64,000 bases of DNA from contig CBDBHR010000028.1 of the NCBI GenBank assembly GCA_965205865.1, forward strand, positions 32,001-96,000. The letters run 5' to 3'. Shown here in pieces: positions 1,705 to 27,354 of the stretch. The translations under genes and the position numbers were made by a program. Every line of letters begins with the position of its first letter. Within the stretch, counting starts at the first letter, position 1. A model generated the notes under the pieces. The model was not told where the DNA came from, ran no database searches, and saw only the letters and a program-made list of their open reading frames with translations. This DNA is from a bacterium (lineage in GTDB: Bacteria > SAR324 > NAC60-12).

Positions 1705-1982
1705 GTGGGAATTTCCTTGCGAACAAATTAGTATTTAGAAAAAGTGCAAGATACCACTATACTGAGGGACTTTAAAGTCTTTATATTTTGTTTATTTTTA
1801 TAATTATTTACAATTGAATTTTAAATTTGTTAAATTGGGCGCCAACGGGCGATCTTCGTATTCCAACACGGCCACCGAAAGGTTGTTTGGTTCCGTGTCC
1901 TCCGGTAAGCAACTTTTCAGGGCATAGGGTCTCCTTATAACTGATGTTATACTGTGAACGGATTATTTCTGGATTCATTTTT

Positions 1983-2062
1983 TGTCATCCTGAGGGAACC
2001 GAAGAATCTTCTTGATTCCCATGAGATTCTTGCTTAGGCAGCCCCCTTAGCTCGGAATGACA
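1983..2062. repeat. TGTC-tagged REP-like palindrome (family A)
   Basis: TGTCATCCTGAG...GAATCT / AGATTCT...CTCGGAATGACA inverted arms. Confidence 0.65.
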
Positions 2063-2211
2063 GTTCTTTTGAAAAGTGAAATTTAAACCCGTTTAGAGTA
2101 TATGTGAATAGATTTTGCAAGAAGTTAATATTTCCTCCAATGGATTATCCAGGGACAAAGGCCGACATGGAACGGGCAATTGAGGTTTGACCCCTTTTCA
2201 TTTTCAAATGT

Positions 2212-15398: not shown

Positions 15399-17108
15399 AT
15401 GGGATCCTTTACCGAGAACGCCCGATATTGGGCCCGGTCCTCCGTTTTTGATCAAGCCACACGCCAGGAAGTGCGGAAGCTCTTGGAGCAACAAGATGTA
15501 AAAGAACTGGCAGACCGGTTTTCCAGCCCCCTCGAATTTGGAACTGCAGGAATGCGGGGCATTATGGCAGCCGGAGTGAACCGTATGAATCGTTATACGG
15601 TTCGTCAAGCCACGGAGGGATTGGCGCGCTACCTCGAAAAACACGCGGACGATGACCATGCCGGCGTAGTGATAGGCTACGACTCCCGCCACAATTCTCC
15701 GCAATTCGCGCAGGCTGCCAGTGAAGTCCTCGCCGCTCATGGTATCCCCGTTTTTTTGTTCCGGGAAATGGCGCCCACTCCCATGGTCTCCTTTGAAGTG
15801 CTCGAGCAGAAGGCCATGGCTGGCATCGTCATTACCGCCAGCCACAACCCTGCCGAGTACAATGGTTATAAAGTCTATTGGAAAAACGGTGGTCAGATCA
15901 TTGCTCCGCAAGATCAGGGTATCATCGCTGAAGTGCGACAAGTGACCGATATGGCATCGATTGCGCACATCCCTTTCGAAAACGCGCTCCGGGAGGGAAT
16001 CATTCAAAAACTCGCGGAAGATTCGGACGCCCGCTATCTGGCAGTCTTGGAAAAACAGGCGCTGGGAGACCCTGCGCAGAACAGACGATTGGCAGTGATC
16101 TACACCCCCTTGCATGGCACGGGCATACGCTGCGTTCCTCCTCTTTTGAGAAAACGGGGTTTCCGACAATTGAAACAAATCGAAGCGCAATGCGTACCTG
16201 ACAGCAATTTTTCCACGGTACGCTCCCCCAATCCCGAAGATGCCCGGGTTTTTGAAATGGCAAGGGCCGCCGCCGCACCCGAAGATGAACTGATCTTAAC
16301 CAACGACCCCGATGCGGACCGGCTTGGAGTGATGCTCCGTCACAATACCGAATGGCGCCACTTGAATGGCAATCAAACAGGGGCTCTCTTGCTGGACTAT
16401 TGGCTGTCACGACTGCAAGCATTGAAAAAACTGCCTGAAGATGGCGTCTTTATGCTGAGCAACGTCTCCTCGCCCTTGGGAACAAAAATCGCCGGCTTTC
16501 ATGGCCTCAGGGTTATCGAAACCCTGACTGGATTCAAATGGATGCGCGCCGAAGCGACGAAGATTGAAGAAGAAGGCAGAGGCACTTTTGTTTTTGCCAT
16601 GGAAGAAAGTCTGGGTTTCCTGGCAGGGAATCATACCGGAGACAAAGACGGCGTGTGGGCGGCCCTGGCATTTGCGGAAATGACCGCCTCCTTGAAAGCC
16701 CGGGGACTGACTCCGCTGGATCGCTTGCGGCAGTTGCACCAGCAATTCGGATTCCATCTGGATGATTTGGAAAATCGTACTTTGCCCGGCATTGACGGTC
16801 GACGGCGGATAGAAGCGATCATGCAGGGTTTTCGCCATCATCCGCCGGCCACGATTGGCGGAAGCCGCTTGCTGCGAATCACGGACCTTCTGGAAAAGCT
16901 GGTGACCACGCCGGGATCCGGCGAAACACTCCCGGGTCCGGATTTGCCCGTTTCCGACGTGCTTATTTTTCAGTTGGAAGACGACGCCCGCGTTATCGTG
17001 CGCCCTTCCGGCACGGAACCTAAAATCAAATACTATTTCAACCTTTGCGGCACCAATGAGGCGTTGTTGCAAGAACGTCTGGATCGTCTCAAAAAAGATA
17101 TGCTATGA
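15399..17108 (+). CDS. pgm: Phosphoglucomutase/phosphomannomutase
   Basis: FGTAGMRG, TASHNP, DPDADR, RPSGTEPKIK. Confidence 0.93.
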   Translation: MGSFTENARYWARSSVFDQATRQEVRKLLEQQDVKELADRFSSPLEFGTAGMRGIMAAGVNRMNRYTVRQATEGLARYLEKHADDDHAGVVIGYDSRHNSPQFAQAASEVLAAHGIPVFLFREMAPTPMVSFEVLEQKAMAGIVITASHNPAEYNGYKVYWKNGGQIIAPQDQGIIAEVRQVTDMASIAHIPFENALREGIIQKLAEDSDARYLAVLEKQALGDPAQNRRLAVIYTPLHGTGIRCVPPLLRKRGFRQLKQIEAQCVPDSNFSTVRSPNPEDARVFEMARAAAAPEDELILTNDPDADRLGVMLRHNTEWRHLNGNQTGALLLDYWLSRLQALKKLPEDGVFMLSNVSSPLGTKIAGFHGLRVIETLTGFKWMRAEATKIEEEGRGTFVFAMEESLGFLAGNHTGDKDGVWAALAFAEMTASLKARGLTPLDRLRQLHQQFGFHLDDLENRTLPGIDGRRRIEAIMQGFRHHPPATIGGSRLLRITDLLEKLVTTPGSGETLPGPDLPVSDVLIFQLEDDARVIVRPSGTEPKIKYYFNLCGTNEALLQERLDRLKKDML

Positions 17109-17189
17109 AGATCCGGAATAGCCCATCCAGGCAACTCGGACCGCCTCGAGATTGAATCGTTTTGGCAAGAATGATAGTTTCTCAGTCAT

Positions 17190-17283
17190 GTTACCGTGAA
17201 GAAAACTATCTAACCTACTGAAACTATATGGTTTGTTATTTTTATTCATCCTCCGGGGTGAAAATAATTTACATGAAGGTTAC
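17190..17283 (-). mobile_element. 84-bp non-autonomous MITE with the same ends as the adjacent IS110, flanked by duplicated GTTAC core
   Basis: Reverse complement reads GTAAC-CTTCATG...TTTCACCCCGGAGGATGAA...TTCACG-GTAAC; empty site at 26339-26365. Confidence 0.8.
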
Positions 17284-17335
17284 GCGTATATTTTTTGCAT
17301 TCTGCGGTTTCCATGAATACGCTTCACCACAAGTG

Positions 17336-17419
17336 TGTCATTCCTGGCGAAGACCAGGAATCCAGGAATCACCCTGGAACGCTAGCAAAGTGGATTCCTG
17401 GTCTTCGCCAGGAATGACA
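17336..17419. repeat. REP doublet (family A), perfect 29-bp inverted repeat
   Basis: TGTCATTCCTGGCGAAGACCAGGAATCCA / TGGATTCCTGGTCTTCGCCAGGAATGACA. Confidence 0.9.
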
Positions 17420-17513
17420 ACTCGATGAGACGCATAACTGCAAAAATCGTTCACGTAACCTTCATGAAAACTTATGCTTTCACCCCGGAGGATGAAAATG
17501 TTATATACCAATA

Positions 17514-17701
17514 GAGGCTGAAGCGCTCGTTTCTCATGTTAGCGACTTGATCCTGTCACGTAACCTGAGCGTAGCTTTCATTGGTTCGCACCCCGGAGTG
17601 TTTCGTAGTATTTCTACAGAAGGTACGGTAAGAAGACCGACTTCAGGATTCAATTTTGATTCATGGAGCCAGGTAACCCAAGAAAGTGATTTTTCAGCCT
17701 C
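17514..17701 (+). ncRNA. Candidate bridge/seek RNA of the IS110
   Basis: Closing stem GAGGCTGAA/TTCAGCCTC; internal segments match target and donor junctions. Confidence 0.7.
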
Positions 17702-17746
17702 CTTTACGAGTGAAGCCAACTACTACATTCAGGAAAGGAGGAGAAG

Positions 17747-18973
17747 ATGATTCAACCCTTAGCTCAAAGTAGTGCTGGTCTAGATATTCATCGCGCTGTG
17801 ATTGTGGCCACAGTGCTTCATGAGAATCGCGATGGACAAATAAGCAAAAAGGTCAAAGAATTCGAGACCTTTTCACAAGATTTGGAAGAACTCGCTCAGT
17901 GGTTAAAGCAGTTAAACCCAGAGTTAGTGGTCATGGAATCCACAGGCATTTACTGGAAACAAGTTTATGAGTCTCTCGAAAATGTGGGAATTATTCCTTG
18001 GGTGGTCAATGCCTACCATATCAAAAAAGTTCCTGGTCGAAAGAGCGACGTCCAGGATTCAGAATGGTTAGCAGAACTTGCCTGTTGTGGATTACTCAAA
18101 GCCAGTTTTGTTCCTCCAAAAGATTTTCGTCAACTTCGTTTGTTGACACGTTACCGTAAAAAACTTTCAGGCGTTTTGAGTAGCGAAAAAAATCGCTTGC
18201 ACAAAATCCTTGAAAGTTGTGGTATCAAATTAGGGCTCGTGCTCAGTGACATCGATGGCGTTTCGGCACGAAGAATGATCGCTACTCTCATCGAGAGTGG
18301 CGGGATTCAGCCGGATAAACTTGCCTCCCTTTTAGATGGTAGGTTGCTTCCGAAGTTGGCTCTGATTGAAAAATCATTGTCCACTTCTTTGAGTGAGCGC
18401 CAACGTTTTTTGCTCAAACAGATTCAGGCCCATATGGTATGGCTCGAATCCAGGATAGAGCAAATCGATGAGCAGCTCGTTGCGGCGATGGTCCCGTATC
18501 AGGAGCAATATCACTTATTGCAAACCATTCCTGGAATTGACCACATCTCTGCCACGATGTTACTGGCCGAGCTTAGCACCGATATGGGTGCTTTTCCCAA
18601 TAAACACCATCTTTGTTCATGGGTGGCACTCTCGCCTGGAAACAATGAAAGTGCAGGAAAACGCAAAACCGGTAAAACTCGTAAAGGCAATGCATATGTT
18701 CGTTCATTATTATGTGAATGTGCTAATGCTGCCATCAAAACCAAATCGCAATTTAAAGGACGATATCAAGGCCTTGTGATTCGCCGGGGACACAAGCGTA
18801 GTATCGTTGCCATTGCTCATAAAATGCTTCAAATAATTTACATTGTTCTCAAGAAGCAAGAACCTTATCGAGATCCTCAAATTGATTATGAGGCACTCGT
18901 TGTCAAAAAAAATGCTCCCAGATGGTTGAAGGCGCTTAGTAAATATGGGTATTTGCCAAAAAACTCAAACTGA
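17747..18973 (+). CDS. IS110-family DEDD recombinase/transposase
   Basis: AGLDIH, VMESTG, KSDVQDS, ESAGK conserved Ser, AIAHK; RBS AGGAGG. Confidence 0.95.
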   Translation: MIQPLAQSSAGLDIHRAVIVATVLHENRDGQISKKVKEFETFSQDLEELAQWLKQLNPELVVMESTGIYWKQVYESLENVGIIPWVVNAYHIKKVPGRKSDVQDSEWLAELACCGLLKASFVPPKDFRQLRLLTRYRKKLSGVLSSEKNRLHKILESCGIKLGLVLSDIDGVSARRMIATLIESGGIQPDKLASLLDGRLLPKLALIEKSLSTSLSERQRFLLKQIQAHMVWLESRIEQIDEQLVAAMVPYQEQYHLLQTIPGIDHISATMLLAELSTDMGAFPNKHHLCSWVALSPGNNESAGKRKTGKTRKGNAYVRSLLCECANAAIKTKSQFKGRYQGLVIRRGHKRSIVAIAHKMLQIIYIVLKKQEPYRDPQIDYEALVVKKNAPRWLKALSKYGYLPKNSN

Positions 18974-19130
18974 GAAGCGCATCACCTAGAAAATCCATCT
19001 GATTGTGGCTAAAACGTGAACTTCAGGCCCACTCACTCTATGTGCGCCCTCAGCCACCAGATATTTTCACGGTAACATCAGTTTCTAATTGCAAATCATT
19101 GCGCACATTTACTTTTGATCAGGGAAATCC

Positions 19131-26130: not shown

Positions 26131-26420
26131 GAAGGCTCCCTTCATCTATGAGGCGGCATCAGGTCATTGTTTTAAACTCCACCTCTGAGAGGTTTGCAGG
26201 CCAGCGGGCGGTGCCTTTATAACACCCGCAGTTTCATACATATTGACCTTTTGGATGGGGGACTGCACCAGCGGTCCTCCATCTACTTCCTTTCTGAATT
26301 TTCAAGATCATTGAATAATGCGCAATTTTTCTGTATAAGTCATGTTACGCGTATATTTTTTGCATTCAGCGGTTTCCATGAATACGCTTCCCCACAAGTG
26401 TGTCATTACTGTCCCCACAA

Positions 26421-26640
26421 GTGTGTCATTCCTGGCCAAGACCAGGAATCCAGGAGTCGCCATAGTGTGTCATTCCTGGCCAAGACCAGGAATCCAGGAG
26501 TCGCCATAGTGTGTCATTCCTGGCCAAGACCAGGAATCCAGGAGTCGCCATAGTGTGTCATTCCTGGCCAAGACCAGGAATCCAGGAGTCGCCATAGTGT
26601 GTCATTCCTGGCCAAGACCAGGAATCCAGGAGTCGCCATC
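26421..26640 (+). repeat. Tandem array of five 44-bp REP units (family A)
   Basis: GTGTGTCATTCCTGGCCAAGACCAGGAATCCAGGAGTCGCCATA x5, no unique spacers. Confidence 0.95.
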
Positions 26641-26750
26641 ATGAAAACCTACAACGTTTATATCTTGGCAAGTAAAAGAAATGGCACTCTATATTTTGAG
26701 TGACAAATGATCTTCTTAAAAGAGTTTATGAACATAAAACAATCTCGTAG
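26641..26750 (+). pseudogene. GIY-YIG nuclease (UPF0213-like), frameshifted and truncated
   Basis: MKTYNVYILASKRNGTLY then frameshift to VTNDLLKRVYEHK. Confidence 0.85.
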
Positions 26751-26771
26751 AGCCAATATTGAGGTCAGGCT

Positions 26772-27354
26772 GTGCGCCAGGAAAGCTGGCAAGAAATAGA
26801 GAGTGAAAGTCTCTTACTCGGTAAGGCAGTAACGACCCGCCGAGTCCCCGAGTCATGAGTGGTTATTCGCAAGGATAGGCGCTAAGCGTTGACAGGGGAG
26901 AACATAGGCTCGGTATTGAGCTCCGAAATCATAGTTTCAGGCGCTGACCTTGTGGTCTGGTGGGGAAAGCAATATCAACCGAAGGCCTTAGCGTGAGTCT
27001 CGGCTGAGCCTGGCGGAGTCAAAGACCCGGTGCATGTGTGGAAGTTTCTTGATCGGAACCTGGGAGATCCTGAAGACGACTGTCAACATTCTATTGGTAG
27101 TCGGATCGGGAAAATTAATAAATAACCCCGATATCTACGTCTTCAGGAAGTCGGACAAGTTCGTAGTAGCGATGAAGCGGCGAACAATGAGATCATTTGC
27201 AGAGAGCGGTTTAAGCAGAGTGCGCCAAACGGCAACGTTTGAGCGTCTGACTCGAAGCAGGAGCCGGATGCGTTAGCAGCGCACGTCCGGATCTGTACTG
27301 GAGGAATGACGAAAGGTGGCTGGAAACCACTATAAGTCAGTTCTTTACGGTGAC
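26772..27354 (+). mobile_element. ORF-less group II intron (583 nt)
   Basis: 5' GTGCG; domain V GAGCCGGATGCGTTAGCAGCGCACGTCCGGATCT; 3' end TACGGTGAC; flanks rejoin to the repeat seen at 33047. Confidence 0.85.

Follow-up and report, generated by a model that had tools for sequence, protein, structure and literature searches.

Introduction

For ISPpu9, an IS110-family element of Pseudomonas putida KT2440, the accessible part of the report describes a MITE-like ssr9 module, MITEPpu9, which circularises only when the transposase is present (PMC12288879). A comparable separation of donor and machinery is described for IS621, for which a 22-bp donor works in E. coli with the bridge RNA supplied in trans (PMC11208160, accessible part), and the corresponding portion of a third report has IS1111 inserting into the REP of QMITE2 in Coxiella burnetii (PMC5896051). 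Tandem non-coding units have furthermore been reported beside IS110 genes, with a bridge RNA likely acting in trans (10.64898/2026.08.14.744561, accessible part). In our literature search, which had supplements and ISfinder outside its scope, no cargo-less IS110 mini-element of the size described below was found.

Here we analyse an 84-bp insert and its surroundings in a contiguous stretch of 64,000 nucleotides of bacterial DNA (hereafter the window, which also gives the coordinates used throughout), starting from a sequence-only reading in which the insert had been taken for a MITE with the ends of an adjacent IS110 element.

Results

A gene-less insert with the ends of an IS110-family element

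The locus contains two insertions (Table 1). The larger belongs to the IS110 family by the DEDD recombinase domains of its gene product. The smaller interrupts an arm that reads, in order, GTCATGTTAC (17185-17194), the insert (17195-17278), a second GTTAC (17279-17283) and GCGTATATTTTTTGCA (17284-17299), and the same arm stands uninterrupted in another copy of the host repeat at 26339; the letters first noted for the interrupted and the uninterrupted arm were borne out when we re-read the sequence.

Table 1. Features of the locus and of the sites compared with it (positions in the window)
Feature	Position	Strand	Remarks
Unrelated classical MITE, about 155 bp	1948-2102		inverted ends TATACTGTGAACGG / CCGTT(T/C)AGAGTATA; 21 genome copies
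AGTTTCT direct repeat, borders the whole complex	17176-17182	plus	again at 19080-19086
Host palindromic element, ORF-less remnant, carries both insertions	17185-19079		own DNA 17185-17194, 17279-17459, 19072-19079
GTAAC, right junction of the mini-element	17190-17194	minus	
84-bp gene-less mini-IS110 (MITE-like)	17195-17278	minus	keeps IS left-end bases 1-36 and about the last 17 of the right end
GTAAC, left junction of the mini-element	17279-17283	minus	contains the probable crossover core TAA (core inferred from relatives)
Full IS110-family element, 1612 bp	17460-19071	plus	GTAAC on both sides, 17455-17459 and 19072-19076
Candidate right target guide (CAUGUUA)	17535-17541	plus	complementary to core and right target; weaker support from relatives
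Left target guide (UCACGUAAC)	17556-17564	plus	agrees in sense with arm sequence left of the insertion and with core
Left donor guide of the bridge RNA (UACGGUAA)	17624-17631	plus	agrees in sense with right IS end and core
DEDD recombinase gene, 408 aa	17747-18973	plus	PF01548 2e-25, PF02371 2e-22, both over curated cut-offs
Unoccupied arm, other copy of the host repeat (paralogous empty site)	26339-26364	plus	reads GTCATGTTAC and GCGTATATTTTTTGCA uninterrupted

On the minus strand, the insert starts with CTTCATG and stops with TTCACG; the IS starts with CTTCATG and stops with TTTTCACG. The claim that the insert carries the ends of the IS110 element thus holds, as does its description as a miniature gene-less derivative of it. 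The sequence common to the two is limited to the first 36 bp and about the last 17 bp, and the interior of the mini-element is unrelated to the IS. At its ends, the mini-element retains TTCACGG on the right, the core TAA, and on the left CCTTCATG followed by about 28 more bases; it has neither a recombinase gene nor guide loops. No fold beyond that of shuffled sequences was detected on either strand of the 84-bp form (z = +0.9 and -0.6) or in the 68-bp form described below.

The name MITE proved partly apt. Both ends match the parent IS, there is no coding capacity, and several dispersed copies as well as empty sites exist, all of which characterise a non-autonomous derivative. Long terminal inverted repeats and a duplicated target site, by which classical MITEs are recognised, are lacking: the inverted match is short and subterminal (CATGAAAA versus TTTTCACG in the IS) and weaker in the 84-bp form, and the GTAAC flanks are a shared core rather than a target duplication. 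Empty sites contain a single GTAAC, as does the end-to-end junction. We hence use the term MITE-like.

The junctions are spanned by other public assemblies, so the arrangement is not an artefact of the source assembly. Independent contigs cover the first junction in window order, from the upstream gene into the insert (X3 record 23, 16701-17223), and the whole IS with both flanks (X3 record 27, 17442-19083). In a contig of 1675 nt from an RNA library (depth 132), base 19071 is joined back to 17455 through GTAAC. This is the joint expected of an IS circle, and one that would be mimicked by a tandem IS or by DNA carry-over in the library.

Eleven copies in the source genome, ten of them in the arms of a repeat

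The source genome comprises 30 contigs (4.74 Mb, 92% complete), and repeat counts are accordingly lower bounds. The sequence-only reading had called for a search for further copies and empty sites, which returned 10 more full copies of the mini-element and 23 empty arm ends. As the mini-element recurs at these 10 other sites with 88.5-100% identity, the observation is not due to chance. The 11 full copies, all of which have left-end bases 1-36 and about the last 17 bases in common with the IS, fall into two size classes, eight of 84 bp (one with a decayed right end) and three of 87 bp, the latter with 0, 2 and 1 differences from the IS over the first 36 bp; the window copy is 100% identical to one on another contig. 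Two full IS copies are present (99% identical, the second on another contig), and other partial remnants amount to one 168-bp IS left-end fragment and one 42-bp mini-element fragment.

Each 84-bp copy could in principle be the leftover of a full IS that suffered an internal deletion on the spot, a history with which the shared ends and the existence of a truncated IS left-end fragment elsewhere in the genome would agree. However, all 11 copies share one interior of ~30 bp that is absent from the IS, and eleven identical independent deletions are not credible; moreover, the sister species has the same architecture with the same left-end breakpoint. We therefore regard formation in situ as barely conceivable.

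For the arm census, we anchored each arm on its interior and read outward, setting aside eight tandem-array hits without a terminal arm. The 15 A-arm ends comprised one IS, six mini copies and eight empty ends, and the 20 B-arm ends one IS, four mini copies and 15 empty ends, that is, 12/35 ends occupied and 23/35 empty overall. The 10 arm-borne mini copies and both IS copies occupy an identical arm position (12/12) with the left end towards the repeat interior, indicating site- and orientation-specific insertion without a true target duplication. The two insertions of the window follow this rule, each with its left end towards the interior of the element, which agrees with the earlier statement that both arms of one palindromic element carry insertions in opposite orientations. 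The eleventh mini copy lies head to tail behind another, with a junction that reads right end-GTAAC-left end. Occupancy follows the match to the guide, in that ends reading CACGTAAC were occupied in 9/14 cases and other ends in 3/21 (Fisher p = 0.004, which is indicative and overstated since the ends are related to each other). The arm end that received the window copy reads CGCGTAAC, one mismatch from the guide. Each inserted mini copy recreates a near-target at its right junction.

The host is a remnant of a GIY-YIG-encoding repeat

The sequence-only reading had called the host of both insertions a palindrome. It is indeed a two-armed palindromic element, and more exactly the ORF-less remnant of a repeat of ~470 bp. 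Full copies of this repeat (e.g. L001 100-586), of which there are at least 10, have imperfect inverted ends, REP-like hairpins and an ORF of ~95-108 aa with a GIY-YIG domain (PF01541, 4e-15); this ORF has been lost from the window copy. In the contigs of 3/4 runs, position 17175 is joined to 19080, which represents an empty allele of the whole complex (the 7-nt AGTTTCT fits either side). The complex is missing from the orthologous site of the sister species G001, where about 107 bp separate the same two genes. The complex of mini-element, host remnant and IS is thus itself an insertion, and the host repeat has the look of a small mobile element, given the 7-nt direct repeat and its absence from some population contigs and from the orthologous site of the sister species. 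No comparable small GIY-YIG mobile element was among the 12 top hits of our literature search.

Several other features were observed around these repeats. The stretch 26415-27354, next to the empty arm at 26.3 kb, consists of five REP-like units of 44 bp in tandem and then a group II intron (RF02005, 9e-49, 26806-27028; domain V/VI match at 27259-27354), and another host repeat (L002) is split by an insert of ~920 bp that resembles, by eye only, a group II intron read backwards. Rfam scores for MIR821 and mir-240 over the palindrome were below threshold and caused by the palindrome hairpin, and we discarded them.

The mobility of the host raises the question of how much of the mini-element copy number it explains. 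After one or two initial insertions, the mini-element could have been multiplied solely through copying of the GIY-YIG repeat: all full mini copies but one lie inside this repeat, 8-11 bp from its tip, and would travel along with it, and the repeat is itself mobile by the empty allele and the sister-species site described above. Against such passive spread, both size classes (84 and 87 bp) are found in both arms, and as the arms differ in sequence, at least four insertions would be needed. When 10 host repeats were placed in a tree, each of the two clades contained occupied as well as empty copies, a weak argument (support of 93/98, the tree being otherwise unresolved). A tandem pair also exists, and the sister species has copies at non-arm sites. 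We consider purely passive spread improbable; the distribution of size classes and the mixed clades favour several insertions, with some passive copying possible, and part of the mini copy number could come from host-repeat duplication. Among the contigs listed, which break in repeats, none carried the joint from 17194 to 17284 that an empty allele of this very arm would give.

One further site had been proposed as a diverged target-like sequence (1939-1964), a proposal that we abandon. This stretch is the end of an unrelated MITE family of 155 bp, only 2/21 copies of which have that flank, and these two share their whole flank. Its local alignments to the two arms, with scores of 19 and 21, stayed below the maximum of 24 reached by shuffled sequences. 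The likeness of 1940-1960 to the arm end stems from the combination of a local flank with the inverted-repeat end of this MITE family.

Guides of a bridge RNA in the IS leader

The IS has a leader of 287 nt that folds modestly better than shuffled sequences (z = -2.1), and we therefore sought its guides by comparison with relatives. For this, we used G010 (same family, 80%-identical recombinase) and 62 loci at 27-61% identity from named genomes, with element boundaries fixed from multi-copy genomes. Among 22 leaders scanned, a conserved motif ending in TAA was present in 15 and absent from 7; 13 of the 15 motif-bearing leaders were used, after L041 and L047 had been dropped as near-duplicates of L042 and L046.

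The 8 nt ending in the TAA of the guide matched the right IS end without mismatch in 8/13 relatives and with one mismatch in 4/13, and this left donor guide covaries with the right end in 12/13 (L046 does not fit). The matching right ends lie 73-108 nt past the stop codon and are of five types, all tracked by the guide: CACGG, CACAG, CATGG, CACGT and CACGC. The match CACGG-TAA is intact in 10/11 mini copies. The left target guide matches the left flank in 5/6 relatives with a known flank, G010 being a poor fit. The candidate right target guide pairs perfectly with arm A and with one mismatch with arm B. TAA is common to both junctions in the relatives whose ends could be set (AAA in one), and on this comparison the crossover core is probably the TAA inside GTAAC. 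The leader thus contains what defines a bridge or seek RNA, namely non-coding sequence with guides that match the donor and the target, in the form of the left donor and left target guides. For a right donor guide, exact antisense matches sought in 11 relatives pointed to no consistent position, and candidates picked by eye at ~17620-17626 and 17672-17678 were rejected as they showed no covariation. No bridge-RNA family was matched in an Rfam scan.

Within the target loop (17535-17564), the guide complementary to the top strand sits 5' of the guide matching the bottom strand. This order is, in the accessible portion of the source, typical of the IS1111 type and opposite to that of the IS110 type (PMC11187229); the non-coding region here nevertheless precedes the gene, which is the IS110-type arrangement. 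Support is good for the 3' placement of the left target guide, whereas the 5' guide is a candidate only.

In contigs of runs X10 and X17, the IS is a variant that differs at 17557 and 17559, within the left target guide, possibly a case of natural retargeting; the RNA-library contig with the joint of 19071 to 17455 is of the same variant. The solo 168-bp fragment of the IS left end (L003 136-303) lies outside the window at a site that is not an arm and joins an 84-type start to IS leader sequence; it stops just before the left donor guide, so that the target loop is kept and the donor loop is absent. In G010, the flanks of the one fully assembled IS copy match its own target guides poorly, and a single left-end query returned no clear mini-elements in that genome.

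Mini-elements without a matching recombinase in a sister species

The sister species G001 is represented by one contig and scored 93% complete. It contains six 68-bp homologues of the mini-element with the same ends and the same left-end breakpoint, some of which occupy the arms of another repeat with that same target at its ends, the others lying elsewhere. Two of the 68-bp mini-elements stand in tandem with TAA-G-TAA between them (L010 1521-1668), and at another site the right-end part alone is duplicated (L016 1521-1620). No matching recombinase was detected in G001 at E <= 1e-40, and its five own IS110 copies were discarded as partners since their ends are unrelated. The mini family is thus older than the two species or has moved between them, and it can outlive its partner. 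Given these homologues without a matching recombinase, such copies can persist as relics, and those of the source genome might be relics too. Weak matches in G003 and G024 (33-34 nt, 88% identity) are probably due to chance and were set aside.

The same 36-bp block at the left end, together with about 11-17 bp at the right, is retained by the mini-elements of both species (84/87 and 68 bp). Such conservation might point to a mini-element that is kept for a function of the host or the IS, as a recombinase decoy or landing pad or as an outward promoter, rather than being purely selfish: the left block, with CACCCCGGAG, is conserved in the mini families of both species and in IS relatives at ~50% protein identity, the right junction recreates a near-target, and both species have tandem copies. 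A promoter scan, however, gave no site at the tandem junction, and the single promoter-like site that it gave around the window copy compares with 1.2 expected by chance; the mini-element has no significant fold, one copy has a decayed right end, and the insertion sites are other mobile DNA, not genes. A retained function hence seems very unlikely.

Discussion

Covariation links the left donor guide to the right IS end, and 10 of the 11 mini copies keep that end, which leads us to read the 84-bp insert as a mini-IS110 moved in trans. It is most probably a non-autonomous miniature derivative of the neighbouring IS110-family element, the step in trans being deduced from its anatomy and from the pattern of its copies. 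This reading is also favoured by the IS left-end fragment with its 84-type start, by the end-to-end IS joint of the RNA-library contig and by the transposase-dependent circles of the ISPpu9 module; the negative search for a right donor guide and the G001 homologues count against it. Mobilisation in trans and present-day activity are both what we infer; neither a circle junction nor an excision product was observed for the mini-element itself. According to this model, the recombinase and the bridge RNA of either full IS copy would act in trans on the mini-element, the two ends of which would be joined by copy-out or excision, and reinsertion would take place where the target loop can pair, at (T/A)CACG-TAA-CAT(G/C)A close to the tip of either inverted arm in the GIY-YIG mini-element. 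As the arms are inverted copies of one target, the mini-element and the IS point in opposite directions. Copy-out models, as set out in the accessible parts of two reports (10.1101/2025.10.25.684509; 10.64898/2026.08.31.748434), would suit the multiplication of the mini-element.

The locus can be seen as three layers of nested selfish DNA, with a mini-IS and an IS inside a GIY-YIG mini-element, and its analysis is also of value for annotation, as it explains a repeat family that would otherwise resemble an unknown intergenic motif. The mini-element would moreover be a natural read-out of what a bridge RNA needs in cis when RNA and enzyme come from elsewhere. The earlier claim that it defines the minimal cis requirements is overstated: a 22-bp donor already works for IS621 in E. 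coli, and the natural copies keep much more. We would suggest, speculatively and with more doubt than confidence, that the 36-bp left block (the subterminal inverted repeat and CACCCCGGAG) is an extra cis requirement of natural copy-out or excision and that the near-targets of inserted copies seed head-to-tail arrays. For insertion, the 22-bp laboratory donor can do without the bases of this block. The block may, for example, be contacted by the recombinase or the RNA outside the guide-paired core. The near-targets at right junctions could yield head-to-tail arrays, and with them ready-made donor junctions in the chromosome. The tandem pair and the right-end duplication of G001 resemble the tandem non-coding units found beside IS110 genes (10.64898/2026.08.14.744561, accessible part).

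The following comparisons hold for the accessible portions of the respective reports. The preference of an IS110/IS1111-type element for a target inside another miniature mobile element is shared with IS1111 and QMITE2, where only the full IS is an occupant; at the present locus the target is used by a miniature derivative as well, within a repeat that has a GIY-YIG gene (PMC5896051). With IS621, the locus shares a donor made of a few bases on each side of a core and read by the donor loop, an RNA that can act in trans (in IS621), and a left donor guide in the same sense as the top strand. It differs from IS621 in the core, which is probably TAA here and CT in IS621, in the donor retained (36 + ~17 bp in the natural mini copies versus 22 bp), and in the order of the target-loop guides, which is opposite, the 5' guide here being a candidate only (PMC11208160).

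MITEPpu9, which is often located directly behind the transposase gene, differs from the mini-element in its cargo, a small-RNA gene, and in the circles that it forms. In the 84 bp described here there is no cargo such as the ssr9 small-RNA gene, no predicted structure and no Rfam match, and circles of this element were not observed. As in MITEPpu9, the module is gene-less, bounded by IS-like ends and found in several copies with and without the IS, and as in ISPpu9, the parent IS lands in palindromic repeats (PMC12288879). By analogy with these precedents, MITEPpu9 and the 22-bp donors of IS621, the mini-element is of an already described kind, that of hitch-hiking DNA.
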